Notes: generated by a model not told the origin, from the sequence alone. DNA of 63,644 nucleotides from Campylobacterales bacterium (GCA_016744895.1 JADGDK010000002.1:1-63644), one strand, 5' to 3'; counted from the stretch's first letter, positions 8,514-48,495 are shown. Numbers and translations: made by a program.

Positions 8514-8540
8514 ATATCGGACAAAAATTATTCTTTTTTA
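8514..8540 (-). promoter_or_regulatory. Sigma28 (FliA)-type promoter of PAS-MCP operon
   Basis: TAAA-N15-TCCGATAT on minus strand, canonical spacing, upstream of a chemoreceptor. Confidence 0.75.
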
Positions 8541-8555
8541 GGGATGGGAAAATAT

Positions 8556-9521
8556 ATGTTGATAGATGGACATGGGAGAAGTGTAAACTACCTTAGGGTT
8601 TCAGTAACCGAACGATGTAATTTTAGATGTCAGTACTGCATGCCAGATAAGCCTTTTTCATGGGCTCCAAGAGAGAACTTACTCTCATTTGAAGATCTTT
8701 TTTTGTTTATCAAAGCAGCAATTGATGAAGGCATAGACAAGATCAGAATCACTGGTGGAGAACCGCTTTTAAGAACAGATTTGGATGGTTTTATCAAGAT
8801 GATCAGTGATTATAAGAATGATATTGATTTAGCATTGACTACAAATGGTTATCTTTTACCACAAACTGCTCAAAAATTAAAAGATGCAGGATTAAATAGA
8901 CTTAATATCTCACTAGATTCTTTGAAGCCTGAAGTAGCACATCAAATTGCACAAAAAGATGTCTTAAAAGATGTCTTAAAAGGAATTGAAAAAGCATTAG
9001 AAGTAGGGCTCAAAGTAAAGATTAATATGGTTCCATTAAGAGGGATAAATGATAGAGAAATTGTTGATATTTTGGACTTTTGTAAAGCCAGAAATATTGA
9101 AGTAAGATTTATCGAGTATATGGAAAATGCTTTAGCAAAAGATGAACTCAAAGGGCTTTTAGGTAAAGAGATATTAGATCGTGTCAAAGAAAAATATACG
9201 ATTACAAAAGTAGGTCGTGAGGGGGCAAGTCCATCATTTTCTTATCATACCGAGGATAGATATAAGTTTGGTTTAATTGATCCTCACAAGCATGATTTTT
9301 GCGAAGATTGCAATCGTATTCGGCTCACAGCAGAGGGGAACCTCATACCATGTCTTTATTTTGATGAGGCGATGAGTATCAAAGATGCTGTTCAAAGTGG
9401 AGATGTACCTAAAGCAGTTGAGATTTTAAGAACAGTTCTTAAAGATAAACCAAAAGAGAATCGCTGGAATGATGAAGATAGCGAAACTTCTAGTAGAGCT
9501 TTTTATGAGACTGGTGGTTGA
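8556..9521 (+). CDS. moaA: GTP 3',8-cyclase
   Basis: CNFRCQYC radical SAM motif, C-terminal [11 protein letters not shown], terminal GG; start MLIDGHGR at 8556. Confidence 0.96.
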
Positions 9522-12873: not shown

Positions 12874-12906
12874 AAAAATCCTTTTTAGATCTATTATACC
12901 CAAGTG

Positions 12907-12933
12907 TAAAGAAATAATTTCATGTGTCGATGT
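12907..12933 (+). promoter_or_regulatory. Sigma28-type promoter of pilin 1
   Basis: TAAA(12907-10)-N15-GTCGATGT(12926-33). Confidence 0.65.
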
Positions 12934-12969
12934 AGGAAGTAAGAAATAAAATGGTTTAAGGAATTTTCT

Positions 12970-13653
12970 ATGAAAAGAAATGGTTTTACAATGGTAGAGT
13001 TAATTTTTGTGATTATTATTATTGGTATATTAAGTGTTGCTGCGATACCTAAATTTGGTGATATCAAGGATAGAGCAAAAGTAAATACTGAATATAGTGC
13101 TTTATCAGGTTTAGATAGTGCAATTGTTGCTGCTATGGAATTTCACGCTGATGATAATGATGGTAATATTGGCGTTATTTGGAGTCCAGACCCAGATGGA
13201 AATGAACAAACATATAATGCTGCTAATGCAGCTGGTGAAGTATTCAATAAAATTGCAAAAAAAGGTGATAATCTAGAGATATTAAAATATATCAATATGG
13301 ATGAAAATGGTAGTGTATCTGCTACAGCCAATAGTGGATCTAATGGCGCTTATGACATCTTATTTATTACGGGGGCGGCTTCAGATTCATCTACAGGAGT
13401 AAAACAGCCAACTGCTGAGACTGTTGGAAAACCTGATAAAAATGATTTTTGGATATTTAATGGCAGTCCTGTAACTGTTTATGTGAACCATTTTGCTGAT
13501 ATAGCAGCACAAACAGTAATTGAAAGTGGAGAGATAAAGCTTATTGATAATGATGCTATTGTTACTGATTTTACAAATGTTGGAGCTACAGGTACATCAA
13601 CTGAAGTTGGTGTATCTTTGGCAAGTGGTGGTGCAATTTTAACAGTTCAATAA
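12970..13653 (+). CDS. Type IV major pilin-like protein 1
   Basis: Class III signal NG|FTMVELI, hydrophobic helix with P22; GKPDKNDFW motif. Confidence 0.9.
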   Translation: MKRNGFTMVELIFVIIIIGILSVAAIPKFGDIKDRAKVNTEYSALSGLDSAIVAAMEFHADDNDGNIGVIWSPDPDGNEQTYNAANAAGEVFNKIAKKGDNLEILKYINMDENGSVSATANSGSNGAYDILFITGAASDSSTGVKQPTAETVGKPDKNDFWIFNGSPVTVYVNHFADIAAQTVIESGEIKLIDNDAIVTDFTNVGATGTSTEVGVSLASGGAILTVQ

Positions 13654-13670
13654 CTTATAATAAGACTCAT

Positions 13671-13700
13671 AAGGTATATAAAGTATATTTTATATACCTT
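13671..13700 (+). terminator. Terminator after pilin 1
   Basis: AAGGTATATAAA / TTTATATACCTT 12-bp stem. Confidence 0.7.
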
Positions 13701-13709
13701 TAACCTTTC

Positions 13710-13776
13710 TACACAATATATAAAATAATATTTACTATTCATCTTCTCAATCTTGCCGATTTACACAATATATAAA
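13710..13776 (+). repeat. 15-bp direct repeat TACACAATATATAAA flanking pilin 2 promoter
   Basis: Exact copies at 13710-13724 and 13762-13776. Confidence 0.85.
13754..13762 (+). promoter_or_regulatory. Sigma28-type -10 box of pilin 2
   Basis: TGCCGATTT, GCCGAT starts 39 nt before ATG; -35 weak (TATT). Confidence 0.55.
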
Positions 13777-13793
13777 GATAAAAAGGACAAATC

Positions 13794-14498
13794 ATGAAAA
13801 GAAATGGTTTTACTATGATTGAATTAATTGTCGTAATTGTAATTATAGGTATTTTAGCCACTGTATCACTTCCAAAGTTTACTAATGTCAAAGATATGGC
13901 AAAAGCCAATAGTGAGCTATCAAGCGTATATAGCCTTGATCCGGCAATCATGGCTGCAATTGAGTATCGTAGTAAAAGTTATGGTGATACAAAAGTAAAT
14001 TGGCATCATTATGATGATATGAATGATACAGTTAGTGGAAATAGAGCAGGTCACTATAAGGACATTAATGAAGAACATTTAGTGTTTTCTAAAATTGCTA
14101 AACGAAACAAAGATTTTGAGATTATAGGATGGAAAGCTATTGATTCACTTGGCAATTCATCTTATAATGATGGACTTTATTATGATGCAATTGCACTTAA
14201 AGTAGAAGCTACAAAAGCAGATACAGGTGCAAGATATCCAACAGATGCCCCAGGACTTGATGTTGAAGGAGAACCTGATCGTAATGATTTTTGGGTATTT
14301 AACCCTTCAAGGATTGATTTAAGTATTACAACAAGAAATGCAAGATCTCCTATCAATTCAACAATAGTTGCATCTGGTGAGATTAAACTTATAGATGTTA
14401 ATGGGACAGCACCTGTAGTTGCTGTTACTGATATTGGTATGACAGGTCTTACCAATAATACAGCTGCTGTATATTATTTTAGTGCCACTGCACAATAA
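13794..14498 (+). CDS. Type IV major pilin-like protein 2
   Basis: NG|FTMIELI; GEPDRNDFW and SGEIKLID motifs shared with paralogs. Confidence 0.9.
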   Translation: MKRNGFTMIELIVVIVIIGILATVSLPKFTNVKDMAKANSELSSVYSLDPAIMAAIEYRSKSYGDTKVNWHHYDDMNDTVSGNRAGHYKDINEEHLVFSKIAKRNKDFEIIGWKAIDSLGNSSYNDGLYYDAIALKVEATKADTGARYPTDAPGLDVEGEPDRNDFWVFNPSRIDLSITTRNARSPINSTIVASGEIKLIDVNGTAPVVAVTDIGMTGLTNNTAAVYYFSATAQ

Positions 14499-14503
14499 AA
14501 ACT

Positions 14504-14541
14504 TTTGTTATAAAGATAGATTTTTCTATTTTTGTAACAAA
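14504..14541 (+). terminator. Terminator-like hairpin after pilin 2
   Basis: TTTGTTATAAAGATAGA / TCTATTTTTGTAACAAA stem with G-U pairs. Confidence 0.55.
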
Positions 14542-14603
14542 TTATTACATAACTAAAAAAAATTAACCTAATTTATCTTTATAAGTTCATATTTAGTTTA
14601 CCT

Positions 14604-14612
14604 TGTCGATAT
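14604..14612 (+). promoter_or_regulatory. Sigma28-type -10 box of pilin 3
   Basis: TGTCGATAT, GTCGAT starts 40 nt before ATG; -35 weak. Confidence 0.55.
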
Positions 14613-14644
14613 AATAGTATATAAAAACATACTAGGACAAGATT

Positions 14645-15286
14645 ATGATAAAACGAAATGGCTTTACTATGATAGAACTTATCTCTGTAATTGTAATTAT
14701 CGGTATACTCTCATCGATAGCAATTCCAAAATTTACTGGTGTAAAAGATCAAGCAAATAAATCAACGGAACTTGCAACAGCAGCTTCAATTGGTGTAGCG
14801 TTAGAGTCTATTCATGGAACTTGGAGTATTAGTGATGGAGATTTTGACTGGAATAATGATGGTGTGGATGATAATATAGATGTAGACTTGTCTGAAAGTG
14901 GTTATCCTTTAGATCTTTCTAGAAATGAAGATGCCCTTGGTGCTTTAATCAAATCTTCTGGAAATAGTGGCTTTAAAAAACAGACTTTAGGTACATTAAA
15001 TGACATTGCAAACAGCATATTTTCAATATATACAGCAAAAGCATCAGATCCTACAACGGGAGTCAATGCGTCAAAAGAGATAGAGGGTAAACCAGATAAA
15101 AATGATTTTTGGCTTTATATGGCAGATACCAATTCGACACAGAAATGCTTTGTGAGTACAAGCGCAAGTAAAGAGAGACAAATCATGAGTGGAGATTTTA
15201 TGCTTATTGATGTCAATAGCTCCTCTCCTACTAGCTTTTTAGATGATGATCTTGGTTTATCATTTAAAATAGAGTGTCGTTCATAA
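14645..15286 (+). CDS. Type IV major pilin-like protein 3
   Basis: NG|FTMIELI; GKPDKNDFW, SGDFMLID; C-terminal Cys pair. Confidence 0.9.
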   Translation: MIKRNGFTMIELISVIVIIGILSSIAIPKFTGVKDQANKSTELATAASIGVALESIHGTWSISDGDFDWNNDGVDDNIDVDLSESGYPLDLSRNEDALGALIKSSGNSGFKKQTLGTLNDIANSIFSIYTAKASDPTTGVNASKEIEGKPDKNDFWLYMADTNSTQKCFVSTSASKERQIMSGDFMLIDVNSSSPTSFLDDDLGLSFKIECRS

Positions 15287-15288
15287 CA

Positions 15289-16530
15289 CTATTGGCTAAC
15301 AACTTCAGCCATAGACCACATAGGTAGAAAGATACCAAGGGCTAAGAGCGTGACAAAACCGGCGAGTGCAGCGATCATGATAGGTTCAATATATGTTGAA
15401 ATATTGTCAACTAAATCGTTGTATTTGGCATTATAGTAGCTATCAACTTTTTCCAGCATCTTATTGAGTGATCCACTGGTCTCTCCTGCTTTAATCATTT
15501 GGATGATCATATTTTCAAACTGACCACTACCTTTAAATCCTTGGGTCAGTGTCTTTCCTTCCTCTATTGACTCTTCAACCATAGTAAAGCGCTCTTTTAA
15601 GTAATCATTCTCAACAATATTTTTTGCAATTCCTAATGACTTAATGATAGGAATACCTGAATTTGTAAGCTTGTTAAAAACAAACATAAATCTTCCTGTC
15701 ATAGAGAGATGTGTTATTTTTCCAATAAGATAAATATTTAATATATATTTATCTATGAAATATTTGTATTTGCCTTTTTTATTGTAGAGTGTGATATGTA
15801 CAAAAATAATAGCAATGATAGCGATCAATAAAAATAGTCCACTGTCCCTTATAAAAGTTTCGATATTTAAAAGCAATTGCGTAGGCAGTGGAAGCTCGGC
15901 ACCATTGTCTTCAAACATCTCTTTAAATTGTGGAACAACCATAGTGATTACAGCTATAAAAGCTCCTATCATAGCTGTAATCACTATCGCTGGATAACGA
16001 AGGGCTGATTTAAGTTTTTTACGATTTTGATGGATTTCATCTAGAATATTTGAGAGTTTTATAACTGATTCTGAGAGTTCACCTGTTTGTTCACCGAGAC
16101 TGATTATAGAGTAGGAAAGATTGCCAAGCTCATAAGCATAATCTTCAAATGCTTCAGTGATGCTACTTCCTGATTCGACTTTGAGTGCGATTTGTCCGAA
16201 AATTTCTCTTAAGTGGACACTATCAGTTGTATTCACTACTTCCATAAAACATTGGTTGACTGGAATTCCAGCATCAAGCATTACCCCTAATTGTCTAAGA
16301 GAGGCGATATAAGGTTCTAATTTTATTCTTTTCTTTAAAGTTCTTTTTTTAGCAGATTCTATATAGTTTTGGATACGAAGAGTCAATGGTTCATTTATCT
16401 CATGCATCGAAACCATAATTCCAAGTGTTTTTTCCTGAAACTGTTTAAGTGCATCTATCTTGTGTGGTGACTCAATAATTGTTTTGTGTTTTTCACCACC
16501 TATGAGATAAATTACTTCAAAATACTTCAT
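15289..16530 (-). CDS. mshG: Pilus platform protein PilC/GspF (MshG/CtsF-like)
   Basis: RQLGVMLDAGIP, GEQTGEL, SALRYP, LPLPT, AGETSGSL, IEP, GIFLPMW. Confidence 0.9.
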   Translation of the reverse strand: MKYFEVIYLIGGEKHKTIIESPHKIDALKQFQEKTLGIMVSMHEINEPLTLRIQNYIESAKKRTLKKRIKLEPYIASLRQLGVMLDAGIPVNQCFMEVVNTTDSVHLREIFGQIALKVESGSSITEAFEDYAYELGNLSYSIISLGEQTGELSESVIKLSNILDEIHQNRKKLKSALRYPAIVITAMIGAFIAVITMVVPQFKEMFEDNGAELPLPTQLLLNIETFIRDSGLFLLIAIIAIIFVHITLYNKKGKYKYFIDKYILNIYLIGKITHLSMTGRFMFVFNKLTNSGIPIIKSLGIAKNIVENDYLKERFTMVEESIEEGKTLTQGFKGSGQFENMIIQMIKAGETSGSLNKMLEKVDSYYNAKYNDLVDNISTYIEPIMIAALAGFVTLLALGIFLPMWSMAEVVSQ

Positions 16531-18191
16531 GTTTTAACAACCCTCAATACTTCTTCCAAAGTAGTTGTAGATTCCAATGCTTTACCAATTCCATCTATTA
16601 GCATTGGTTCAAATCCACTTCTTAATGCTTCTTGGTAGATCTCATGTTTGTTTTTATCTTCAGATATTTGAGTTGATATATTCTCTGTAATTTGGAGTAT
16701 TTCACAGATCATAATTCTTCCTTTGTAGCCACTAAATTCACATTTTGGACATCCCTTTCCTGTGTAAAATGTATAATCTTCAGGAAGATGATGGTGTATT
16801 TTTTTGATAAGAGGAAGTTGAGGTTTATGTTCTATTTTACACTCAGGACAGATTTTTCGTACTAAACGCTGGGTTACAATCCCTACAAGAGAATCAGCGA
16901 TAAGATAGGATTGAAGTCCCATTTGTACAAGTCTTGTAATCGCACTAGGTGCATCATTTGTATGTAGGGTTGAAAATACTAAGTGACCAGTCAAAGAGGC
17001 ACCTACCGCAGTATTTAGAGTTTCATCATCACGAATCTCACCTACCATGATAATATCTGGATCTTGTCTAAGTACTGATTTTAAAACATGGTTAAATGTA
17101 TAGCCTATTTTGTCATTTGTCTGCATCTGTTGTACAAGAGGCAGTTGGTACTCGATAGGATCTTCAATAGTAATAATTTTATTTTCAATATCTTTGATAT
17201 CATTTAGTGCAGCATAAAGAGAAGTCGTTTTTCCACTTCCTGTAGGACCCGTCACAAAAACAACACCATATGGTGAATCAAGTAAGGTTTGAAATTTTTT
17301 CAGATTTTTTTCATTCATTCCTAATTGATCAAGTTTGAGAAGAATTTTTTGTTGGTCTAAAATCCGCATTACAATAGACTCTCCATGTAGTGTGGGTGCA
17401 GTTGAGAGTCTAAAATCATATTTACTATTATTGACATTCATTGAAAATCTACCATCTTGGGATCTTCTCTTTTCAGAAATATCAAGATTCCCTAAAATTT
17501 TGATACGAGAGGCAAGCGCATTGTAAATCTCGATATCCAAAATAAAAACTTCTCGAAGGATTCCATCAACTCTATTTCTTACTGAAACATCAATATCATT
17601 TGGTTCTATATGAATATCACTTGCTCCATTTCTAACAGCAGTTTTAAGAATTTGTTCAATGAGTTGCATGATAGAGCTTTGTTCATTGTCAAGTTTAAAC
17701 TCTTTTGAATGGATTTCATCTTTTACTTTTTGCATAAGCGATTGTGTAGTTTCGATAATCTCAAATCGTTCATATAAATGTCTAATATCTGACTTTAGAG
17801 AGATATAGTACTTAATTGGTTTTACCACAATGTTTCGTTCTAGTAGCTCCATGTTGTCATAGTTTAAGGGATCTGAAATTGCGATATGGATAAAGTCTTC
17901 ATCTTCTTTAATGATAATGGCATCTGCACTTTTGAGTATATTAAGGGAAAAGTTTTTTAGTACTGTAAAGTTGATATTGATGCTGTAAAGATCGATAAAT
18001 TCATATTCTAATTGAGAAGCAAGGACTTGGGCAAACTCTTTTTCACCTATGAGTCCCTCATCAATAAAAATTTCACCAAGTTTTTTTGAAAAGTTACTAT
18101 CTTTTTGCACACCAAGTGCATGCATCAATTGATCTTGTGTGATTTTTCCTTCATCAATGAGAATATCACCGATCCTAAGAGTTTTTCGCAT
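16527..18191 (-). CDS. mshE: Pilus extension ATPase PilB/GspE with N-terminal MshEN domain (MshE/CtsE-like)
   Basis: RIGDILIDEGKIT...LGVQ and KLGEIFIDEGLI MshEN repeats; ASDIHIEP, GPTGSGKTT, LRQDPDIIMVGEIRD, tetracysteine Zn motif. Confidence 0.93.
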   Translation of the reverse strand: MRKTLRIGDILIDEGKITQDQLMHALGVQKDSNFSKKLGEIFIDEGLIGEKEFAQVLASQLEYEFIDLYSININFTVLKNFSLNILKSADAIIIKEDEDFIHIAISDPLNYDNMELLERNIVVKPIKYYISLKSDIRHLYERFEIIETTQSLMQKVKDEIHSKEFKLDNEQSSIMQLIEQILKTAVRNGASDIHIEPNDIDVSVRNRVDGILREVFILDIEIYNALASRIKILGNLDISEKRRSQDGRFSMNVNNSKYDFRLSTAPTLHGESIVMRILDQQKILLKLDQLGMNEKNLKKFQTLLDSPYGVVFVTGPTGSGKTTSLYAALNDIKDIENKIITIEDPIEYQLPLVQQMQTNDKIGYTFNHVLKSVLRQDPDIIMVGEIRDDETLNTAVGASLTGHLVFSTLHTNDAPSAITRLVQMGLQSYLIADSLVGIVTQRLVRKICPECKIEHKPQLPLIKKIHHHLPEDYTFYTGKGCPKCEFSGYKGRIMICEILQITENISTQISEDKNKHEIYQEALRSGFEPMLIDGIGKALESTTTLEEVLRVVKT

Positions 18192-18237
18192 TGTAGATAC
18201 CTTGAAATATCTGATAGGAATAATCCTATCAGTTGTG

Positions 18238-18885
18238 TTATTTCAAGTTATCTAGCAAATTTTGTACCTCTTTTGAATTAGTATGTTTTAGATAGATAGA
18301 AAGTGCTTTTTGTGCCACTTTTGTTTTGCCTAAAGAGGCTTTTGATTTTGCATAAAGAATCCATGGAAGACTCTGTTTTGGATCTTTTTTACTAGCTTTT
18401 ACTGCCCAAGTGACAGCTTTTTCATAATCCTTTTCTTCAAAATAAAAACTTGCAACATTGACTGCAGAGTGATAACTATTTTGTTCTTTATCTTTTGTTA
18501 AGAGTGAATAGAGATTTTTACGCTCTTTTACTTCAAGCTGAAATGGATTACTTTTTTCAATTTTCTTTTCACTTCGTTTATAAACTTTATTTGGAAGTTC
18601 TTCTGTTTTTGGAGTGGCAACTTTGATTCTATTTGGTGCCTTATCTTCAGGTTGTTTTATTGTATTTTTAATTTCTTTATCTGTAGTGATTGTAGGGGTA
18701 TTGATATCTGCTTCAGGAGTAGTCATTTTAAAGCTATTGACAATAAACTCACTTTTACTAATAAAAAAGAATCCACCAGCAATAATTGCAGTAAGTCCTA
18801 AAAGTGAGAGTAGTTTTTTGCGTCTTCTTTCACTTGTATGTCTCTCATATTTTCTAACAAGTTCTCCAAAGTTATTATTTAACAT
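18238..18885 (-). CDS. TM + TPR protein (MshN/CtsX-like)
   Basis: N-terminal TM, linker, C-terminal TPR (YEKAVTWAVKA, PWILYAKS); position between ATPases. Confidence 0.7.
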   Translation of the reverse strand: MLNNNFGELVRKYERHTSERRRKKLLSLLGLTAIIAGGFFFISKSEFIVNSFKMTTPEADINTPTITTDKEIKNTIKQPEDKAPNRIKVATPKTEELPNKVYKRSEKKIEKSNPFQLEVKERKNLYSLLTKDKEQNSYHSAVNVASFYFEEKDYEKAVTWAVKASKKDPKQSLPWILYAKSKASLGKTKVAQKALSIYLKHTNSKEVQNLLDNLK

Positions 18886-19681
18886 CTATAAGTCCTATAT
18901 CGATAGCTGCCATAGTAAGTGTTTTTGTATTCACTTTTGTATAGTTTTTATTTAAATCCTCTTTATGCGCAATATTCATAATTTCAAAAAGTGTTTTAAC
19001 CAGTTTTTTAGTAGTTCTAAAATTTCTTTTTGTGTAAAGTCCTATTTGCTTATAATGTCTATTTTTAAAAAGAGATGCTAATTCTGATAGGTTATTAGAT
19101 ATAAGACGGTTTTCTATATATCTTGAAACTTCATGGTCTTGAAGTGCATCTAATTCGATAAGTCTTGTAGTCCTTGATTTAAAGTGGTCTTTTTCTAATA
19201 TATATTGACCCTCTTTTTTATGCATAGAAAGCACAAATTGAAAAATTTTCTGATCACTCAAAATTCTGATAAGTTCAATTTGGTCTTCTGTTAAAAGTTG
19301 TGCTTCATCGATAAAAATTGTATATTCTAAGTTATTGAAGTTTTTTCTTAGATTTGAGATAAGTGCTTCGGTGGTAAGTTCATTTCTTTCAATGTTTTTT
19401 CCAGCAAGGGAGAGAAGAATTTCTAAAAACTCTTTATCATCAAAGTATGGATGTGTGAAATATTTTGCAACTCTTACATTTTGAACTTTTTTAGTGATAA
19501 AATTTAATAAAAAGCTTTTACCGCTTCCTGGAGCACCTAGAAGAAAAACTAATGGTGTATCGTGTGCTGTGATTGCATCAATTAAACTTTTTTTAGCATA
19601 TTCAAATGTCAGAGAGTCAAAATATCCACCCAAATCAAAGTTGTCACTAAATAACTCTTTTGCAACAGCATATTGGTTCAT
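18875..19681 (-). CDS. ExeA-family AAA ATPase (MshM/CtsP-like)
   Basis: GAPGSGKS Walker A, IFIDEAQ Walker B, MAAIDIGL C-terminus. Confidence 0.85.
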   Translation of the reverse strand: MNQYAVAKELFSDNFDLGGYFDSLTFEYAKKSLIDAITAHDTPLVFLLGAPGSGKSFLLNFITKKVQNVRVAKYFTHPYFDDKEFLEILLSLAGKNIERNELTTEALISNLRKNFNNLEYTIFIDEAQLLTEDQIELIRILSDQKIFQFVLSMHKKEGQYILEKDHFKSRTTRLIELDALQDHEVSRYIENRLISNNLSELASLFKNRHYKQIGLYTKRNFRTTKKLVKTLFEIMNIAHKEDLNKNYTKVNTKTLTMAAIDIGLIDVK

Positions 19682-19698
19682 TCTGCCTCTTTTAAGAT

Positions 19699-21084
19699 TT
19701 AATCCAAATTCTCCAGTGTAGGTGCATTTTCATCGCCTCGAATGAGTTTTGGTGTTATTACTATAATCAATTCACTCTTAGTATTCACTTTTTTCTTGCT
19801 TTTAAAAGCGTGCCCTAAGATCGGTATAGCGCTTAGTCCTGGTATTTTGGTAATTTTATCTTCACTTTTGTTTTGAATTAACCCACCTAGTAATATTTTT
19901 TTATTATTTTTTACTTTTACAACAGAAGAAAGTTGTTTAATTTTAATATCAGGAGCCATATTTGCATCGCCTGATTCATCTACATGTTCCTTGGAAATTT
20001 CACTAATTGTTGGATTAATCTTTAAAATAATGAAATCATCCTTTGTAATTTGTGGTACGATTGCTAAAGTAACACCAACAAATGTTGAGCCTATTTCAAA
20101 TTGAGGCTCAGATTGTACGACACCATTTGTAGTTGTTGTAGTGCTGCCTAGTGTATATTTATAGTTTTTTTCTTCCCCTACATTGATAACTGCTGGCTGA
20201 TTGTTAAGTGTTAATATTTTTGGGTTTGAAACGATATTGACATCACCTTGAGTTTTTAGAAAATCTACAAGACCAGCAATTGTAAAGTTGTATTTTGCGA
20301 GATATGTTGGATCTTTGAGTGTATTTAAAAGCCCACTCTCTTTAGATCCATCAGCAGTTCCGTTTAGTGTCGCTTCAAATTTACTCCAATCTATACCAAG
20401 AGTTTGATCAAGTGAATATGTAATCTCTATAATTTTAGCATCTATGATAATTTGTTTATGTAGTCTGTCTATGAGTGTATCAATATACGTTTGCATACGA
20501 TCTAGTTGCCTTTTAGTCCCCGTTACGGTAATTAAACCTGCATCTTGGTTGATTATAGTCTTATCAGAACTGTATGTATCACCATCTCTATTTAAAATAG
20601 TTTGCATTTCTATTTTAATTTCATCCCAAAATTTGAAGTTACTTGTTGAAGTAAGAGAAGTTGAACCATCCCCTGCATCATTAGATCCTGTTTGGATAGT
20701 TTTATTTGAGGCACTGCTTCTGTTTGTGAAGCTTACATAGTCAATAAAAAAAGTTTTAGTTTGAAGATGTGAAACTTTTAATACATTTTTATCACTAAGC
20801 GTATAGAAGAGATTGTTTTCTGTTAAAAGAAGATTTAAAATATCTTCAAGTGTAAAATCATTCACACTTAAATAACTGATCTTTTTGTTTACTAATTTTC
20901 GTGCATTATCATCAGCAAATATAAGACTCATCTTACATTCATTGGAAAGATTTTCTAAAACATTTAATATAGTTCCTGGTCTACTTTTAGTACTATTTAC
21001 TTTAAATGAGAAAAATTTACTTTGACAACTTGCCTGCAAATTCATACCCATAAATAAAATCAGAGCAATAACTAGTTTTCTCAC
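19699..21084 (-). CDS. mshL: Secretin, MSHA MshL/CtsD type
   Basis: FWDEIK, AGLITVTG, IDAKIIEI, GIDWSKF, SNPKILTLNNQPA, IPGLSAIPILG, SELIIVITP. Confidence 0.9.
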   Translation of the reverse strand: MRKLVIALILFMGMNLQASCQSKFFSFKVNSTKSRPGTILNVLENLSNECKMSLIFADDNARKLVNKKISYLSVNDFTLEDILNLLLTENNLFYTLSDKNVLKVSHLQTKTFFIDYVSFTNRSSASNKTIQTGSNDAGDGSTSLTSTSNFKFWDEIKIEMQTILNRDGDTYSSDKTIINQDAGLITVTGTKRQLDRMQTYIDTLIDRLHKQIIIDAKIIEITYSLDQTLGIDWSKFEATLNGTADGSKESGLLNTLKDPTYLAKYNFTIAGLVDFLKTQGDVNIVSNPKILTLNNQPAVINVGEEKNYKYTLGSTTTTTNGVVQSEPQFEIGSTFVGVTLAIVPQITKDDFIILKINPTISEISKEHVDESGDANMAPDIKIKQLSSVVKVKNNKKILLGGLIQNKSEDKITKIPGLSAIPILGHAFKSKKKVNTKSELIIVITPKLIRGDENAPTLENLD

Positions 21085-21512
21085 TTTATCTCCTCTTTTG
21101 TAACTAAAACCAGATTAGATTGTGGAAGTTTTAATGTTGTATATTTATTGTTTTTCTTTAAAACTACAATATCTTGATTTATTTTTATAATCCTATAATC
21201 GGCAAGTTTTTCATTCTCTTTATACCAGCTACCATTTATAAAGGCATTTTTGTTAAAAATCATACTTAGAACTGGACTTAAACTGTGCTTTGGTGCTTTT
21301 GATTGTTTAGTATTAGTTGCTTTTTTTGATAATGGAGCGTTAGCTTTTGATTGTTTGGTATTGAAAGGATCATATGATATTTTAATATCGCTTATTTCTT
21401 TACTGTTACTCTCAAAGATTACTTTTTGAAGTGTTTTATCAATACTCGCTACCAATTGGGCATCTGAGATTAGAAAAGAGACTGATACGCTTAACAATAA
21501 AAGTGCTTTCAT
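21081..21512 (-). CDS. MshK/PilP-like alignment protein
   Basis: Signal peptide, YDPF, AFINGSWYKE; directly upstream of secretin. Confidence 0.6.
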   Translation of the reverse strand: MKALLLLSVSVSFLISDAQLVASIDKTLQKVIFESNSKEISDIKISYDPFNTKQSKANAPLSKKATNTKQSKAPKHSLSPVLSMIFNKNAFINGSWYKENEKLADYRIIKINQDIVVLKKNNKYTTLKLPQSNLVLVTKEEIK

Positions 21513-22135
21513 ATGTTTACTCCATAAATTGTAAAGTTAAAGTGAAAGTCAATATTTTTAGAATCATCTTGTTTTTTCATTTTAATATTTTTTACATCTA
21601 CTAAAAATTGACGGTTTTCTATAAAATGGAGGTATTTTAGAGTATTACTGTATTTGCCACTTCCAATAATCTCCACATATTTTTTTGGAACTATATTTTT
21701 ATGTTTCTCTTGCATCTGCGAGTCACTATTTTTAATATGTTTGATTTTGATATTTAAGTTTAAAGATTGTTTTAGTATCTCATCAAGTGTTATTGTCCAT
21801 TGTTGTTCATTAAACTCTAAAACTTCCATGTTTGTAAGCTTTGCATAGAGATAATTTAAAGAGTCACGATCTTCTTCTACTTTTTCTTTTAGTGCTAAAA
21901 GGGTAGTTTCTGATTTCTTTATCTTTTTTTTGACTATTCTTGGTTGTTTTCTTTTTATATTTGATTGTAGTTTAGTGTTTTCACTTTCAAGCATTTCAAG
22001 CTCATCTTCTTGTATAGGAGTAAGATACATAAATACAATACCTCCGATAAGAATTATAGGCATCAGCAATATCATGATTTTTTGTGTTAGTTGAACTTTT
22101 TTTAAATATGATTCAAACTCTTCAAATAATTTCAT
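21509..22135 (-). CDS. PilO/MshJ-like alignment protein
   Basis: TM, coiled coil, GKYSNTLKYLHFIE motif. Confidence 0.7.
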   Translation of the reverse strand: MKLFEEFESYLKKVQLTQKIMILLMPIILIGGIVFMYLTPIQEDELEMLESENTKLQSNIKRKQPRIVKKKIKKSETTLLALKEKVEEDRDSLNYLYAKLTNMEVLEFNEQQWTITLDEILKQSLNLNIKIKHIKNSDSQMQEKHKNIVPKKYVEIIGSGKYSNTLKYLHFIENRQFLVDVKNIKMKKQDDSKNIDFHFNFTIYGVNI

Positions 22136-22138
22136 TTT

Positions 22139-23626
22139 TTACCTTTTTACTGTAACGATACTTTTATATACTTCATCATCACTAAGCGTTATTTCACCAG
22201 AAGTTACAGAGCTAAATCCAGCTTTTAAAAGATCTTGCATCAAAAGTGCAATAGTATCTCTTTTGTTTTGCTTTGAGGAAAGTTCTAAGTTGAGTGCATG
22301 ATCATCATTTTGTGTAATTTGATCAATTGAGAGTTGATAGCTTTTTAAAATTTTATTGATCTTTAAAAACATAGCTGTATATTTCGTATCTTTTGATTTG
22401 AGCTCTAAGAGAGCGTTAGCAATACTTTGGAGTGTTTGGAGTTTTTTAAAATCTTCTTGTTTCTCAGTTTCTACTTTTTTAATTTCATTATTGAGTTTTT
22501 TCAATTTAGTTTTTAATTTTTTAGAACTTTTACTAATGATTGCTTCTTGACTTCTAAGTAAGGTATTTGCTTCCTCTTTTGAATTGATTTCAAAATAAAG
22601 GTACGTAGGATAGATACTGAGTATCAATGCACTTAGTGCAGAAGCAAGGGCAAATTTTCCAACCTCACTTTTATAAAAAGCTTCTTTCTTGTGAAATATA
22701 GTCATATTATGGCTATTGTCACTAGCGGATAGTTTATCTTTTATGTAAGATGCTGTAATTGCATCAAGAGTATTAACACTTTCATTTTTTAAAAAGTTTA
22801 GTGGTAAAAACTCAGTACTTTCTATATATGGAAGTGCATATTCTGTTAGTGTTGGGACAAATGTATCACAACAACTAAAATAGAGTCTGTCTATTTGAGA
22901 AAAGTTATAAACATTACGGTTATGAAGACTTAAATTTTTAATTTTTGAAAAAAGTGCTTCAAATGTTTCAACAAGATACTCATGAAGATCGTACTGTAAC
23001 AGGTCATAACTGTTTTTATTTAACCCTTTTGTTGTAATTATCTCTTTTAGTTCATCAATGCTTAATGTGATTCTTCTACTCTCTAATTCAGTAATCATCT
23101 CATTTAAAGACTTGATACGTTTTGATGAGATATAGTGACCATCTTTGTATGATGCTGTAAATGCTTCATCCTCTGCAATATAGACAAAAATATCATTTTT
23201 TGGTTCTATTATTTTATTGGTATAGAGGGTTTGGTAAGTTAAAAAAGAGATAGCGATAAAGTCAATATGTTTGACTGTTTTCAATGTATTGTGATATGCT
23301 TGTGTAATAGCACTTTTATCTACTGCAAATGCTTCAAGAAGAACTTCACTTTCTGATACTTTATTTTTTTCAATATATGTAATTTGATATGTTTTAGTTG
23401 GATCTAATCCTATATCTTCATACATTTTGAGTTCAGTCTTTACGTGCAACTCTTGTGCAGACATATTGTTTGCAATTTTAAAACTATGTGAGACAATATC
23501 GCCATAGAGTAGTCTTGCTCCTATGGGGATTTTTCTGTTTTTTAGATTTGCTTCATTTTCAACAGTAGTAGTATAGGCAAATGTGTGACCATTTTGTAAA
23601 TTAATATAGTTGATAATGTTTGACAT
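22139..23626 (-). CDS. PilM-PilN fusion / MshI-like alignment protein
   Basis: Large cytoplasmic domain, single TM, coiled coil, ferredoxin-like C-terminus; operon position. Confidence 0.6.
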   Translation of the reverse strand: MSNIINYINLQNGHTFAYTTTVENEANLKNRKIPIGARLLYGDIVSHSFKIANNMSAQELHVKTELKMYEDIGLDPTKTYQITYIEKNKVSESEVLLEAFAVDKSAITQAYHNTLKTVKHIDFIAISFLTYQTLYTNKIIEPKNDIFVYIAEDEAFTASYKDGHYISSKRIKSLNEMITELESRRITLSIDELKEIITTKGLNKNSYDLLQYDLHEYLVETFEALFSKIKNLSLHNRNVYNFSQIDRLYFSCCDTFVPTLTEYALPYIESTEFLPLNFLKNESVNTLDAITASYIKDKLSASDNSHNMTIFHKKEAFYKSEVGKFALASALSALILSIYPTYLYFEINSKEEANTLLRSQEAIISKSSKKLKTKLKKLNNEIKKVETEKQEDFKKLQTLQSIANALLELKSKDTKYTAMFLKINKILKSYQLSIDQITQNDDHALNLELSSKQNKRDTIALLMQDLLKAGFSSVTSGEITLSDDEVYKSIVTVKR

Positions 23627-23629
23627 CTC

Positions 23630-24082
23630 TTACTCTCTCACTATGTTGCCAGAAAATGGCATGATTTTTATCGCTTTAGTATTATCTTTATAGGATATAT
23701 TAAATACTATCGGCATATTTGTAAAATTATTTACATTAAATGGTCTTCCCAGATTGTCAAAACAGATATTTAAATCATTTGGTGTAATTGTTGTTTGAGT
23801 GCTAATTTTGTAAGGGCTTGATTTGGCACTGTTTTTTTCATTTACATTGATACTATTTTTATTAATAAATATACATGTTGTATTATCAATAAATTGTTTA
23901 CTTTTGTAGTTAAAATTATCATACGATAAAGCATATATCTGTTGTTTTTTAATTTTTTGTATGATGAAATTTGTATCACCTAGAAGCTTATTATCAGGCA
24001 TGTTCATCTTCATCATAGAACCCAAAATACCTAATACGATTATGATAAAGATTAATTCAATCATAGAAAAAGCATGTTTCAT
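23630..24082 (-). CDS. Minor pilin (FimT/MshC-like)
   Basis: HA|FSMIELI; CFDNLGRP motif. Confidence 0.8.
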   Translation of the reverse strand: MKHAFSMIELIFIIIVLGILGSMMKMNMPDNKLLGDTNFIIQKIKKQQIYALSYDNFNYKSKQFIDNTTCIFINKNSINVNEKNSAKSSPYKISTQTTITPNDLNICFDNLGRPFNVNNFTNMPIVFNISYKDNTKAIKIMPFSGNIVRE

Positions 24083-24492
24083 AATCTTTGCATGCTCCTT
24101 CTTGTAAGTCTTACGGGGCGTTTGTTTTTAGGATGTGTGTTATTTGTTTCGACAATGATATTCATACTGACCATTCCATTGGAGTTTTCTGTATCAAGGT
24201 TGATACCGTATAGATAATAGGTTGTAAGATTTATATCTGCAGTAAATCGTTTATCATCTGAGATTACCGTGACTTCTTCAATTAAATTAGTGCCATTGTT
24301 ATGATCGTGAGTGCTAATGCCTAAGAGTGCTAATTCAATGGCACTATTCATAAAAAGTTCAGCTTGTTCTTTGATATAAAGATCTGCAGTTTGTTTACTT
24401 GTAATAGTTGCGTACTTCATGGCAATTGTCAAAAGACCAGAGAGAATTAGCATAAAAAAGATGACTTGAATCATTCCAAAACCATGACGCAT
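24079..24492 (-). CDS. Minor pilin lacking Glu5 (MshP/PilX-like)
   Basis: HG|FGMIQVI; QAELFMNSAIELAL helix. Confidence 0.7.
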   Translation of the reverse strand: MRHGFGMIQVIFFMLILSGLLTIAMKYATITSKQTADLYIKEQAELFMNSAIELALLGISTHDHNNGTNLIEEVTVISDDKRFTADINLTTYYLYGINLDTENSNGMVSMNIIVETNNTHPKNKRPVRLTRRSMQRL

Positions 24493-25358
24493 TAAAATAC
24501 CACCTTTTGTTTGGAAATTTGGACTTCTAAATCTTTTCCTTGTTTTCGTATAGATCGCTTTAAGGTGAGATTAAATTGTAAATTTCCTTCCACAAAATCA
24601 ACCTCAAAACCTTTGGCTTCACTAGAAAGGATTGTCATATCTGCATCATCACAAAATGTCTCACCTTTCCATGGATAATAGTTATAAAATAGTAATAGTG
24701 TCTCATCAGTTTGATATATAGGATCTACACATGTTGAAAGTGAACTATCATACTGTGCAATGGCATAAGCACTTTTAAGTAGATAATACTTTTCATAAAT
24801 TTGTGAAGGTGTGGTTGTAAGTCCTAATTTATTTCCAGTTGAACTACTATTAACCTCAAAAATTTTATTATGAGTATTACCATACCATCCAAACGAATCA
24901 TTAAAGTCAGTGCCATAAATGACACCACCCTCATCAAAACTTCCTGCAAAGATAAGTGCAGAACTGTTTAATTCAGAGCTATCTGGAGAAAAGATCATAT
25001 TTTTATCTTTATCTGACTTTGCAAAATCTATAAACCCACTATAATCTTCTGCTTTATATCTTTCAAAGTCAGTTCCAATCCACTCAAGAATGTTATAACT
25101 TTTACTCAAGTCGTAAATTGATTCAAATGTACCTGTTGTAGAGTCGTATCCGATAACTGTAGAGGGTACCCGATATGAGAGCAGTGCAGAGATTTGGTTT
25201 GAGATCAGCGTTGTGTCAAAAGAGAGTTCACTGATTGCTTTTGATTTGGCACTTTTAGTATAGAGTTGAGCTAAAGAGATATAGGTACCTCCAGCAAGAA
25301 TCCCCATGATGACAATTGTCATGATGAGTTCAACCATGGTAAAAGCAGATTTTTGCAT
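24492..25358 (-). CDS. Minor pilin (MshO/PilW-like)
   Basis: SA|FTMVELI; ATG at 25358 overlaps upstream TGA; LFYNYYPWKGE motif. Confidence 0.8.
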   Translation of the reverse strand: MQKSAFTMVELIMTIVIMGILAGGTYISLAQLYTKSAKSKAISELSFDTTLISNQISALLSYRVPSTVIGYDSTTGTFESIYDLSKSYNILEWIGTDFERYKAEDYSGFIDFAKSDKDKNMIFSPDSSELNSSALIFAGSFDEGGVIYGTDFNDSFGWYGNTHNKIFEVNSSSTGNKLGLTTTPSQIYEKYYLLKSAYAIAQYDSSLSTCVDPIYQTDETLLLFYNYYPWKGETFCDDADMTILSSEAKGFEVDFVEGNLQFNLTLKRSIRKQGKDLEVQISKQKVVF

Positions 25359-26005
25359 CACCATGCCTCACTATTTAATGTAATTTGTCCAATGTTGGCT
25401 GAGTAGTAGTAAAAAGAGGAGATGTTTTTATCTTTACCTCTGCCTCCTACATAGCCTACAACTGCTTTGAATTTTTTGATATTTGAGGTGTTAGTTTGTA
25501 TAGAGTTATCTAAGGCAATTGTCATTTTATTTCCAGTGACCGTAAAAATGGTATCGTTTAAATATTTTACCTCTGTATATATCTTATATTTTGTTTTGTC
25601 AGTTAAATTGACATCAATTGATGTACCATTAAAATCATCGATATCATTATAAGAGAGATAATCATCTTCATCCGTATCTGATCCGATGGCTGAAGCACTA
25701 AAAGACTCTTTACAGTTTCTTGTATTAGATCCTAAAAAACCACCTGCTCGTAAAAATGTAGAGGTACTGCACGGTATATTATTGTCATGAGTTTGTACGA
25801 TAGATATCGTTTCACTGTTATTCTCATCCCATGCAAGCATAGATGCGATATTGGTTAATGAAACTGCGTTAAAAAGTGCATCTTGTTTCATTGCAAATGC
25901 ATCACTTTTGTTTGTTGCAAAAATTATTTTTGGGATGACTGCAAAGATTCCAGCCATGATAACAATGGTAAAAATCAGCTCTATTAAGTTAAATCCACGT
26001 CTCAT
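25358..26005 (-). CDS. Minor pilin (MshD-like)
   Basis: RG|FNLIELI; AWDENN and YNDIDDFNG motifs; ends YYSANIG... Confidence 0.8.
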   Translation of the reverse strand: MRRGFNLIELIFTIVIMAGIFAVIPKIIFATNKSDAFAMKQDALFNAVSLTNIASMLAWDENNSETISIVQTHDNNIPCSTSTFLRAGGFLGSNTRNCKESFSASAIGSDTDEDDYLSYNDIDDFNGTSIDVNLTDKTKYKIYTEVKYLNDTIFTVTGNKMTIALDNSIQTNTSNIKKFKAVVGYVGGRGKDKNISSFYYYSANIGQITLNSEAW

Positions 26006-26045
26006 GATATAGGTTCATAGCACATTCTATTCCATGAAGATAAGA

Positions 26046-29000
26046 CTATCTCATAAGTTTGATAGCCTTTTTCTTGAGTTTGGAGTTAAAATCATTTTGA
26101 AAATTTGTACCGTTAAAATCTCCACTGCTAATACCAATAGTGTCATTTTCTGACTCAAATATATACTCAAAACATGGATGCGTACTACAATCAGTTGCTC
26201 CATCATAGTCACCATATCGGTTATACCATAACCAATCAGGTATGGTTAAATGATAAAATGCTTTGTAGGAACTGTCATGTGTATTGGTTAAGTCATAAGC
26301 AATATTTCCACTATTGGATGTCATGATATTTGTAGCTGAGGTAAATGTGTTGTTTACTGAAGCTATAGTTCTTTGCGTTTTGGGTGTTAATGTGATGGTA
26401 CTAAAGTCATCCTCTTTATTAATATACCAGTTTGAAGTAACTTGTTCAAAACCACTAAGAGGTGTAGGGCTATATAGCGCTACTAAAGTTTTACTAGAGA
26501 CTAAATCTTCACTGGTTTTAATATCCTCAGTAGCAACTTTTCCATAGTAAAAAGTTGCATTACCATCAAAAGTTTCTAGTTTGGCTCCTTTTACATCTAT
26601 ATCTACATGATCAGTAGCAGTGATATTGATATCGCTATTGCTACCATCAACTATAATAGGTACTTTTGTAACATTGTATTCTCGTCCAAAGTTAAATTTT
26701 CTATTGGCATAGGGGAGTGTTGCAACCCCTGTGTTAAAGTTTAAATCTTTAGTTTGACTTTCATTTATGTCAGCGGTAATGTTTGGAGTTGGCGTGACTG
26801 ATAAACCTAGTGTAAACTCTATATTATTTGCAAAATATTGAATTTGTGGATTTTGATAATTTGTCATAACCCCACCATCTTCTCCCAGTGCTGTGATTTT
26901 AAAACTAAGGTTCTTTAACTCTGCTCCCATTTGTGTCTCATCATCGGCATAATAAGTAAATGTTTTGTCATTATCATTGGTCATTGTAGGTGTTGCATCA
27001 AAAGCAATATCAAATCTATCGGGTATAAAAGTGAGATTTTGTTCTAAATAAATTGTCCTATCTTCTAAAGAGGTATCATCACTATCCACTATTGTCCATA
27101 AAGTGTCATTTAATTCCAGTCCAATTTTTCCAACATTGTTAAAGCTAAGATTTGTATTTGCTGTGATTCCATCAATAAAGTTAAAATCAACAGAAGGTGT
27201 AAATGTCCCATCCAACGCGGAACCATCACTATCGTCTCTAAAATATTTTTGACTCTGTAGTGTAACTAATGTATTAAAATTAATGGTTTGTGTAGAGCCA
27301 TTACTATTTACAGCTTTTGCTTGAAACGTATAGTTATGTTCTGCTGTTAGTTTTCCTGTAGGGATATTTTCAAGGATAAAAGTTTGAGGTCTGATAGAAA
27401 AGGTGTCACTAGAGTTTGATTCAAGCGTCTCATTTTCATAAATACCAGTAATTTTGACTTTGGCGCATCTAACAGCTTTATCATGTATGAAAGAGGTAGG
27501 ATTGAAACAACCGTTTGAATCAAGTGCGCTGTTTCCATTCCAAATCTGTGTGGTAGTATAAAGCGTACTACAAGTAGCATCACTGAAACTAAGCAGATCA
27601 AGTTGTGTGATATTGGCATCAGTAATAGTCGCATTGGTCTCTTTGTCTTTTGAAAGAACTGTAAAGTTTATAGCATCACCTGAAATCTTGGTAGTGATAT
27701 TATTGTCCCAATTAAAACAGCCGCCATTTTGATTGACAGCGTTGAATATGGCTTGTCCACATAAAGGGGTGTTACGTATAGTTCCATCATAGTTTTTTCC
27801 TGCTAATTCATTGGCATATATTGTTGTAATTTCACTAGTGCCAATTTCACCTTTGTAGATTTTAAATTCATCAAGATAACTTTTAAAGCGATAACCAGTA
27901 TTAGCACGCCAACCACCTATACGAGCATTGACATTAACAACGGCTCTTGTATTGTTAGGAGAACTACGAAGTTGTGAAAGTGTTTTTTGTACACCATCTA
28001 TATAAATTCTATTTGAATAGACATCTTCATTTGTAAAGACTGCCGCAATATGATGCCAACCATTTGCAAGTCCTATATTGCTAATACCATATATATCTCC
28101 ATTTGATGTGTTAAAACCAAAATCTCCACCTGTGATCCAGAGGTCATGCAGATTCCAGCCAAATGGCATGATACTATTTGTTCCATTCCAATACATCCAA
28201 AACATGACAGTATGTTTCCGATATTTATCCATAGAAACTGCTAATCCATTTACATCTATCGCTCCGCCATTCAGATGTAAGGCATGACCAATTACCTTTT
28301 CATCTTTTGTAATATTAGCAGTAGTACCAGTGATAGTTCCACTATTGTCTCCACCTATTGTGTCTATTATTTCATTTGGATTACCACTGTATTTACACTC
28401 ATCAAAACGATATTCTGCTAAGAGGGATGGAGGAGTACAGTCAATTTTGATACGATGTGAATCATCATAGTTTTTCATACTATTTTCTCGATTAAAGATA
28501 GCGTGTATTTGAGACGTTGTTAGCCTCTGCTGAAAGATTTTAAATTCATCTAGATACCCATCATAATCTTGTGAGGCATTAAATCTTCCTCCTACTGCAT
28601 CTTGCTCTTGACCAATGATAAGACCATTTAGATCAATATCAAGTGCTTGATCGGTCATATCCACGCATGTTCCCTCTTGCGTTCCATCGATATAGATACA
28701 ATTATTTGTACCTTCTCTTGTCCATACCAAATGATGCCATACATCATCAGCAATATTAGGAATAGTGATATTTTTAGAACTACCTTTAATATATGTTGAA
28801 AATTTTGTTCCGCCAAGCCAAAATATTAATTCATTATTTTGTCCAGAATTTGCGCCGGATAGAATTGATTGTTTCGCAGAGTTGGTTGTTTTTATCCATG
28901 TAGCGATAGAAAAATCTTGAATATTATGGAGAATGGTATTATCTATTGATATATAATCAGTAATACTACTAACTGTAAAATCTGCACTGTTGTTTACTAT

Positions 29001-30386: not shown

Positions 30387-30487
30387 TTAATTTCCATTGT
30401 ATGATTTATAGTCCATAAAAAAGCACATTCCATACCATTTCAAGAACTTTTGCTAGAATACCCGCTAACTATAATATCGGAGCAATC

Positions 30488-48291: not shown

Positions 48292-48495
48292 TTACTTTTT
48301 AAACGTGTTGTAAACTCTTTGTAAATCTTCGTAGTTAATTTCACTATTTTCTGTAATAAAAGTGATTGCTTCGTACGGATCTTCATCAGTAATTTCTAGT
48401 GCTTCTTCTAGTAATGTCGCTAATGCATCATCATCAAGAGTGTCTAAATCTATTTCGCTCAATGTCCCAAGCAATTCTAATTCTTCAACAGTCAT
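48292..48495 (-). CDS. Small acidic hypothetical protein
   Basis: 67 aa, AAGGA RBS, fills intergenic gap, very D/E-rich. Confidence 0.6.
   Translation of the reverse strand: MTVEELELLGTLSEIDLDTLDDDALATLLEEALEITDEDPYEAITFITENSEINYEDLQRVYNTFKK

Follow-up and report, generated by a model that had tools for sequence, protein, structure and literature searches.

The stretch of DNA analysed here (63,644 nt, hereafter the window) is contig C222 of the draft genome G000 of an uncultured Campylobacterales bacterium (3.08 Mb in 370 contigs, 33% G+C, completeness 95.7%, contamination 5.4%). Our subject is a group of three tandem type IV pilin genes on its plus strand (12970-15286), which are preceded by sequences of the kind read by FliA (sigma28), a flagellar sigma factor. 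The three proteins share the leader MKRNG↓FTM(V/I)EL, i.e. the short type IVa type with G at -1, F at +1 and E at +5, and all three open reading frames (ORFs) carry the prepilin N-methylation motif (PF07963; TIGR02532). Their pairwise identity is 32-38%, and they represent three distinct orthologous types, each of which is kept in other genera. The solved structure closest to pilin 1 by sequence is the major pilin MshA, with a match that spans the N-terminal 57 residues only. Because of this match, and because its promoter is the best and most conserved of the three, pilin 1 is probably the major subunit of a pilus of the mannose-sensitive haemagglutinin (MSHA) type.

The initial annotation had reported TGYCGAT upstream of all three pilin genes and the full TAAA-N15 arrangement at pilin 1, and all of these coordinates are correct. 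GTCGAT starts at 12926, 44 nt 5' of the pilin-1 ATG (12970), GCCGAT at 13755, 39 nt 5' of the pilin-2 ATG (13794), and GTCGAT at 14605, 40 nt 5' of the pilin-3 ATG (14645); a T precedes each hexamer. At pilin 1, in which the C of CGAT lies 42 nt 5' of the ATG, the box belongs to a complete arrangement of TAAA, 15 nt and a -10 element (Table 1). The -10 elements of pilins 1, 2 and 3, GTCGATGT, GCCGATTT and GTCGATAT, all resemble GCCGATAA and contain its invariant CGAT. A TAAA at the 15-nt spacing is present for pilin 1 and for a site before the mshI-like gene of the neighbouring operon, and its place is taken by TATT in pilin 2 and by TTCA in pilin 3. Neither the sigma54 pattern GG-N10-GC nor an extended -10 (TGnTAnnnT) was found 5' of any of the three pilins. 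The heptamer occurs nine times in the window versus 5.9 expected, a count reached by 12 of 100 shuffled sequences: it is the placement of the heptamers, not their number in the window, that is non-random.

Table 1. Positions of the features discussed in the text, counted from the first nucleotide of the window. PWM, score under the position weight matrix of the motif class.
Feature	Position	Strand	Description
Pilin 1	12970..13653	+	227 aa; leader MKRNG↓FTMVEL; PF07963, TIGR02532
Pilin 2	13794..14498	+	234 aa; 38% identity to pilin 1; orthologue L080:2222-2929
Pilin 3	14645..15286	+	213 aa; C-terminal Cys pair; orthologues L084:951-1604, L080:2939-3580
Pilin-1 sigma28-type promoter	12907..12933	+	TAAA (12907-12910), 15 nt, GTCGATGT (12926-12933); PWM 18.0
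Pilin-2 sigma28-type promoter	13736..13762	+	strong -10 TGCCGATTT, poor -35 (TATT); PWM 13.0
Pilin-3 promoter	14586..14615	+	TTGTCGATAT, poor -35 (TTCA); PWM 13.1
Hairpin 3' of pilin 1	13671..13700	+	AU-rich, 12 bp, -11.8 kcal/mol, z -2.5
Hairpin 3' of pilin 2	14504..14541	+	17 bp, -17.2 kcal/mol, z -6.6; 0/200 shuffles fold as well
Assembly module	15289..23626	-	mshI-like gene, two small genes, MshL-type secretin, AAA_22 ATPase, TPR protein, MshE-type ATPase, T2SSF platform
Internal sigma28-type promoter	23707..23733	-	TAAA, 15 nt, GCCGATAG; PWM 19.5; 86 nt 5' of mshI-like start
Structural module	23630..30386	-	1446-aa secreted Laminin_G_3/PA14 protein, four small pilin-like genes
Sigma54-like box, operon head	30422..30437	-	TGGTATGGAATGTGCT; 51 nt 5' of the first gene's ATG
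Site upstream of adhesin	30474..30481	-	TCCGATAT; TCAT at -35 position, T instead of G at -2; 93 nt to ATG
PAS/MCP operon sigma28-type promoter	8514..8540	-	TAAA-N15-TCCGATAT; PWM 13.7; 37 nt 5' of PAS start, then MCP gene

The motif of the pilin promoters belongs to a class that is found throughout the genome. Genes were called by a simple heuristic of ORFs and ribosome-binding sites (3086 genes, 87% coding), and the spacers upstream of them were collected. In these, forward CGAT peaks 30-49 nt 5' of the starts, with 82 and 73 occurrences per 10-nt bin versus 33 and 33 in reverse orientation. TGnCGAT occurs genome-wide 45 times forward versus 7 times reverse at the same distance, and TAAA-N15-NNCGAT is found in upstream spacers 57 times forward, mostly 30-51 nt from the start, versus 28 times reverse. 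From 172 correctly placed CGAT sites, the three pilin sites being excluded, we built a position weight matrix (PWM) by iteration; it settled on 72 sites, whose consensus is cTAAA-N15-tGCCGATaTa. The canonical FliA consensus has the same two half-sites and the same 15-nt spacing. The scores of the three pilin promoters under this matrix are given in Table 1.

At a PWM score of at least 13 the class comprises 74 of 175 forward sites 26-62 nt 5' of a start. The same score is reached by 5/182 reverse sites in non-divergent spacers, by 12/180 forward sites at other distances and by 39/12537 sites in coding sequence, and owing to these low rates in the control sets we expect no more than a few of the 74 to have arisen by chance. 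About 75 genes have the motif 26-62 nt 5' of their start. The geometry of the sites fits the sigma28 layout published for Campylobacter jejuni, in which, in the available parts of the two sources, the -10 box is CGATwt, one start site was lost when the C of CGATTT was changed to T, and 5' untranslated regions are mostly 20-50 nt long (PMC4626219, PMC3656092).

A Pfam scan of the class members that lie outside the window (72 genes) revealed a content that is in part that of a late flagellar regulon: FlaG, FliW, FliL, a MotA_ExbB-family protein and FlgL (the latter by NCBIfam; TIGR02550, 172 bits vs a cut-off of 127) are members, as is a FapA_N protein. Sensory proteins are represented by four proteins with an MCP signalling domain and by NIT, PAS and CHASE3 sensor proteins, and signal transduction further by six GGDEF and/or EAL proteins, two histidine kinases and two response regulators. 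To the surface proteins belong two Laminin_G_3 proteins (C4:2929-8862, 1977 aa; C155:30328-30924) and PKD, cadherin and fn3 proteins; glycosyltransferases and a polysaccharide export protein are likewise present. A small HHH_3 (ComEA-like) protein and a few housekeeping proteins (GAPDH, Na+/H+ antiporter) are also in the class, and 22/72 proteins matched no Pfam family at E <= 1e-5. Chemoreceptor genes are strongly represented: a site of at least 13 stands at the gene or operon head of 8/14 MCP genes versus 75/2369 genes overall. The PAS/MCP operon of the window, which the initial annotation had put forward as an internal control, is correctly described and carries a site of this class (Table 1).

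The factor itself is encoded in the genome, as the reading of the initial annotation demands: fliA lies at C332:9344-9970 and scores above cut-off with both models applied (TIGR02479, 195.1 bits vs 189.6; NF005413, 248 vs 201). The FliA/WhiG model matches the genome in three places, and fliA alone exceeds the cut-off. The gene for sigma54, rpoN, is present as well.

Forty relatives of the same order were searched for pilin orthologues and their promoters. A pilin-1 orthologue with a box was found in ten of them (G011, G008, G016, G006, G013, G004, G001, G034, G015 and G012), with scores of 17.5-30.1 and at distances of 38-54 nt 5' of the ATG. The orthologous proteins are 41-53% identical to pilin 1, and despite this divergence the aligned promoters retain GTAAAGAAAT and TG[CT]CGAT. 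We further surveyed one genome per species, labelled as Campylobacterales, Campylobacteraceae, Sulfurospirillum, Sulfuricurvum, Sulfurimonas or Hydrogenimonas metagenome-assembled genomes, with 75 loci, of which three were dropped for upstream sequence that was too short. A box of at least 13, placed 26-70 nt 5' of the start, precedes 17/29 first long pilins and 11/43 first short pilins, versus 3/67 later pilins of the arrays, which serve as an internal control of this survey. Two genomes in which neither flagellin nor FliA was found, G026 and G029, have no box at their pilins; this pattern is based on two genomes only. All three pilin types occur together in G011, and types 1 and 3 in G022. 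The type-3 pilin of G022 retains TTCA...ACCTTGTCGATATAA (score 12.2), and the hexamer downstream of it is TATAAA; the surrounding sequence differs.

The pilin genes are met head-on by a long minus-strand operon, which extends from 30386 down to 15289 and consists of a structural and an assembly module (Table 1). Its AAA_22 ATPase, TPR protein and 1446-aa protein are presumably the MshM, MshN and MshQ of the Vibrio system, and its first assembly gene presumably encodes MshI. TIGR02519 is the best-scoring model for the MshL-type secretin, with 240.0 bits, under the cut-off of 250.2. The MshE-type ATPase possesses an N-terminus that binds cyclic di-GMP (c-di-GMP) (PF05157 MshEN, 1.9e-9; NF053729, 56.9 bits vs 38). 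We assign the predicted system to the MSHA-type type IVa pili.

A scan of the window with the PWM revealed a strong sigma28-type site within this operon, located in the 3' end of the minor-pilin gene that precedes the mshI-like gene (Table 1). The site is kept in 6/6 relatives that cover the region (G004, G006, G001, G011, G010 and G012), 73-106 nt 5' of mshI and with scores of 15.4-23.3; two loci ending at a contig edge were left out of this comparison. In G027, which has a distant mshI homologue, the only site lies 209 nt away. Conservation is confined to two blocks, TAAATAAT and GCCGATA, which are separated by a variable spacer, and therefore looks like that of a promoter and not like conservation at the codon level. 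The internal site probably drives the assembly genes. The initial annotation had looked for a promoter of the assembly operon further upstream, before the adhesin gene at its head. The TCCGATAT named there does exist (30481-30474, minus strand). Its -35 position reads TCAT, it stands 93 nt from the ATG and its PWM score stays below the cut of 9; it was rejected as a sigma28 site.

Hairpins 3' of pilins 1 and 2 had been taken to indicate separate transcripts. Both hairpins do fold (Table 1); a clear U-tract is found in neither, and a scan for consensus terminators revealed no intrinsic terminator on the plus strand. The hairpin after pilin 1 is possibly a weak terminator. At 15286-15289 the stop codons of pilin 3 (plus strand) and of the platform gene (minus strand) are 2 nt apart, and the hairpin there is unconvincing (z -1.5); for these reasons the transcripts of the two genes may run into each other.

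Taken together, we consider transcription by the FliA holoenzyme likely for all three pilins, strong at pilin 1 and weaker at pilins 2 and 3, and also for the genes mshI to mshG, there from the promoter inside the operon. Comparative sequence analysis supports the finding well: it shows the motif class, the genes that belong to it, its placement and its conservation, and from these the reading of the sites by FliA, the start of transcription, the relative strength of the promoters and the timing are inferred. Pilin 1 would be read by RNA polymerase with FliA from a full-consensus sigma28 promoter, pilins 2 and 3 from probably weaker promoters that depend chiefly on their -10 element, and the assembly genes from the mshI-like to the platform gene would be served by the internal sigma28-type promoter. 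The start of transcription would be expected some 10-13 nt 3' of the C in CGAT. Cells in the late motile stage would then produce the pilus fibre and its machine at the same time as chemoreceptors, stator proteins and filament accessory proteins, so that the gear for swimming and the gear for sticking are probably switched on together. Pilus activity would be set post-translationally, with c-di-GMP acting on the MshE-type ATPase to decide on deployment. The graded strength of the promoters would fix the ratio of three non-redundant subunits. A major pilin with accessory pilins behind graded promoters fits better than the multi-flagellin-like array that had been proposed at first, because the pilins are three distinct conserved types and because one relative, G011, possesses them as a single operon behind one box. 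The sigma28 reading as such stands in that the class matches the FliA consensus and heads late flagellar and chemoreceptor genes, and falls short in that pilins 2 and 3 lack the TAAA.

Several observations weigh against this reading. As many as 12/29 first long pilins, several genomes labelled Sulfurospirillum included, have no box of at least 13, and the related genomes are not independent, so that the conservation counts overstate the evidence. The PWM and the null distributions depend on crude, ORF-based gene calls. The remaining points are best considered together with the alternatives that they favour.

On the one hand, pilins 2 and 3 at least could have ordinary sigma70 promoters, with CGAT standing by chance beside an AT-rich -10 element, in which case FliA would read pilin 1 or none of the three. 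The -35 subscores of both genes are about 0 (0.5 in pilin 2), the TAAA is missing, and several class members with CGATATAAT precede housekeeping genes such as that of GAPDH; a -35 element as poor as theirs is found in 14/74 class members, fliW included. Their -10 subscores, 14.8 and 13.5 (13.1 in pilin 1), come from TTG[CT]CGAT, of which a sigma70 -10 has no need, and a subscore of at least 13.5 is reached by 18/175 correctly placed forward sites versus 2/182 reverse control sites. In pilin 3 a perfect TATAAT (14610-14615) overlaps the box and forms, with TTCATA 18 nt upstream, a sigma70-type match of 10/12 (TTCATA-18-TATAAT); against this, the orthologue in G022 keeps its ACCTTGTCGATATAA next to a less perfect hexamer. 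Conservation of the motif, which had been named as a check on the FliA reading, holds for pilin 1 and for pilin 3 in G022 and fails for pilin 2 in G011: no box was found before the orthologue there, and pilins 2 and 3 of G011 follow after gaps of 73 and 9 nt without a box and therefore appear to form one operon with pilin 1 behind one promoter. None of the three pilins in our genome has the TGn extended -10 that is described as typical of the phylum in the available part of PMC3656092. On balance we regard sigma70 promoters as an unlikely explanation.

Alternatively, the CGAT class might be read by a factor other than FliA, either another sigma factor or a DNA-binding regulator, and stand outside the flagellar hierarchy. 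With about 75 members the class is large and mostly non-flagellar, with its six GGDEF/EAL proteins, adhesins, glycosyltransferases and many members without a Pfam family; on the other side, it holds flaG, fliW, fliL, flgL, a MotA-family gene and most of the chemoreceptor genes. The sole flagellin gene of the genome scores 9.0 only (TTAAG and TACGATTT, 57 nt 5' of the ATG). The relative G012 keeps boxes at pilin 1 (20.0) and mshI (18.3), and fliA was not found in it at E <= 0.001. This genome (loci L091, L210) is assembled in 180 contigs at 99% completeness and contains a FlgL-like gene, and no flagellin was found in it; it may represent an assembly gap or a genuine counter-example. FlgM, too, was not found in the genome studied here. 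Against another factor stand both half-sites and the exact 15-nt spacing, which equal the canonical FliA consensus, and the FliA/WhiG model, which leaves fliA as the only match above cut-off. We therefore hold this possibility to be improbable. More improbable still is that the boxes at pilins 2 and 3 are non-functional remnants of the duplication behind the three genes: the leaders of these two pilins do share stretches beyond the box (CTTG[CT]CGAT, TATATAAA and AGGACAA), but the pilins are old paralogues with orthologues in other genera, so that neutral spacer sequence should have decayed by now, and the pilin-3 box is retained in G022 amid differing surroundings.

The search for FlgM covered several approaches. 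In G000, neither PF04316 (at E <= 0.001) nor TIGR03824 (at E <= 1) matched. Among 15 genomes of the same family, PF04316 yielded a single sub-threshold match, inside a 386-aa frame, and no credible FlgM, whereas the Pfam model found FlgM in 7/9 genomes of other families of the order, in five of them above cut-off. A tblastn search of G000 with the FlgM proteins of four relatives returned false matches only: the one repeated match, C305:4067-4129, lies inside a 252-aa protein, and another is UvrA-like. Proteins of 65-101 aa behind sigma28-type boxes were considered as candidates and discarded, as none matched an FlgM family. FlgM is small and divergent, and the failure of models to find it is not proof of its absence. 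Since FlgM, which such gating requires, was not found, the proposal of the initial annotation that pilin supply is gated by the completion of the flagellum is not supported.

Transcription of the MSHA genes by FliA, the reading that we prefer, would be a variant of what is already known, namely the expansion of sigma28 regulons and the control of pili by FliA. In the usual description, major type IVa pilins depend on sigma54 or sigma70, and work on how flagella and pili are coordinated for landing has centred on c-di-GMP in Vibrio. Within the phylum, the FliA promoters of C. jejuni and Helicobacter pylori have the same CGATwt core and short leaders, as far as the available text goes (PMC4626219, PMC3656092), and in C. 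jejuni a FliA-controlled cytotoxic protein is described, i.e. a regulon that extends beyond flagellar genes (PMC5430801, in its available part). The class in our genome differs from these in being far larger, with about 75 promoters, and in including pilins and a pilus assembly operon. To our knowledge, C. jejuni and H. pylori possess no type IV pilus fibre genes. A search of the literature on FliA or sigma28 together with pilins, MSHA, Campylobacterota or Sulfurospirillum, with most subscription journals outside its scope, yielded no report from this phylum of MSHA or type IVa pilins under sigma28.

The closest parallel is found in Bdellovibrio. In the portions available of PMC5430801, FliA drives a Tad/Flp pilus operon together with flagellins in Bdellovibrio bacteriovorus and B. 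exovorus, as shown with reporters in an Escherichia coli fliA mutant, the FliA regulon has grown to cover the entire programme of the motile phase, and the type IVa pilA is not FliA-regulated. Both cases have the flagellar sigma factor on pilin genes in common; ours is known computationally only. In contrast to the predator with its Flp pilins of the Tad system, the pilus described here is a type IVa pilus of the MSHA type in Campylobacterales. In the Actinomycetota Rubrobacter and Actinoplanes, according to the accessible part of PMC13595943, a factor of the WhiG/FliA family targets type IV pilus genes and c-di-GMP enzymes; these belong to a Gram-positive phylum, and the factor is controlled by the anti-sigma factor RsiG with c-di-GMP (PMC13595943).

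The MSHA system of Vibrio cholerae is organized in separate structural and secretory gene modules. Our system is similar to it in the MshE-type ATPase with a c-di-GMP-binding N-terminus, the MshL-type secretin and the AAA and TPR accessory proteins, and differs in that the pilins lie apart from the other genes and converge on the assembly operon. Binding of c-di-GMP by MshE is reported in PMC4624772, of which a part was available. No FliA promoter on msh genes was encountered in the FliA and pilus literature searched, and the available text of PMC7098655 and of a Shewanella FliA preprint is silent on it.

Sigma54-like boxes form a second group of candidate promoters. The pattern TGG-N9-TGC is enriched 40-59 nt 5' of gene starts (18 forward vs 4 reverse), and the genes preceded by it encode FlgH, a rod protein, FliK, sugar-nucleotide enzymes and others. 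One such box stands at the head of the minus-strand operon (Table 1). Operon heads were fetched from four relatives, one of whose loci ran off its contig: a similar box occurs in G006, which belongs to the same genus, at 58 nt, and none was found in G011 and G001. With the N-terminus of the adhesin as query for operon heads, only internal LamG repeats were matched. Promotion of the operon head by sigma54 is a tentative suggestion. A second box of this kind lies at 26019-26034 (minus strand), 29 nt 5' of the next gene, and is probably too close to the start to act as a promoter; both boxes read TGG..-N-GAATGTGCT. In addition, a near-consensus sigma54-like box (TTGGCACACTACTTGCTA) was observed in C332, 182 nt 5' of ORF 9018-9284, a small ORF that directly precedes fliA.

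Eleven pilin-like ORFs of the genome were examined. Besides the three MSHA pilins, only the first pilin of another cluster, on C304, is preceded by a sigma28-type box, which makes four in all; none of the minor pilins is. The first C304 pilin (152 aa, ORF start 11659, minus strand) has its box, with a score of 21.2, 55 nt 5' of the ATG. Short pilins of this kind with a box occur in several other genera (L096-L098, L102, L104, L105).

What the sequence indicates is a direct transcriptional link from the flagellar late sigma factor to an MSHA-type pilus, comprising fibre and assembly genes, which is conserved across several genera of environmental Campylobacterales and which suggests that swimming cells are already equipped to attach. 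The roughly 75 promoters provide a concrete, testable set. A wider reading, which we offer as a tentative possibility that is rather doubtful at present, joins these observations into a family-wide sigma28 programme of swimming and landing with a sigma54/sigma28 cascade for MSHA, all without a recognizable FlgM. In this Campylobacterales family sigma28 may serve about 75 promoters well beyond the flagellar late genes. Besides chemoreceptors and filament accessory proteins, its products may include large lectin-like adhesins, six c-di-GMP enzymes, the MSHA machine and, for two different type IV pili, the subunits of the fibre. The MSHA system may copy the flagellar cascade, with an adhesin and minor-pilin module of the sigma54 type and a machine and fibre of the sigma28 type. 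Such a programme without a recognizable FlgM would imply another control of FliA activity, and the question how FliA is controlled in this family is thereby raised.

Two further sites of the sigma28 type deserve mention. A gene for a PilT/PilU-family ATPase (C233:17982-19079; TIGR01420, 456 bits vs 319) is preceded by a box that scores 20.1; a box at this position was ruled out as a conserved feature, as it is present in 2/21 loci only (G000 and G004). In the window itself, at 48292-48495 on the minus strand, a very acidic protein of 67 aa without a family match is encoded behind a box that scores 18.7 and stands 48 nt 5' of the start, with the C of its CGAT at 48543.

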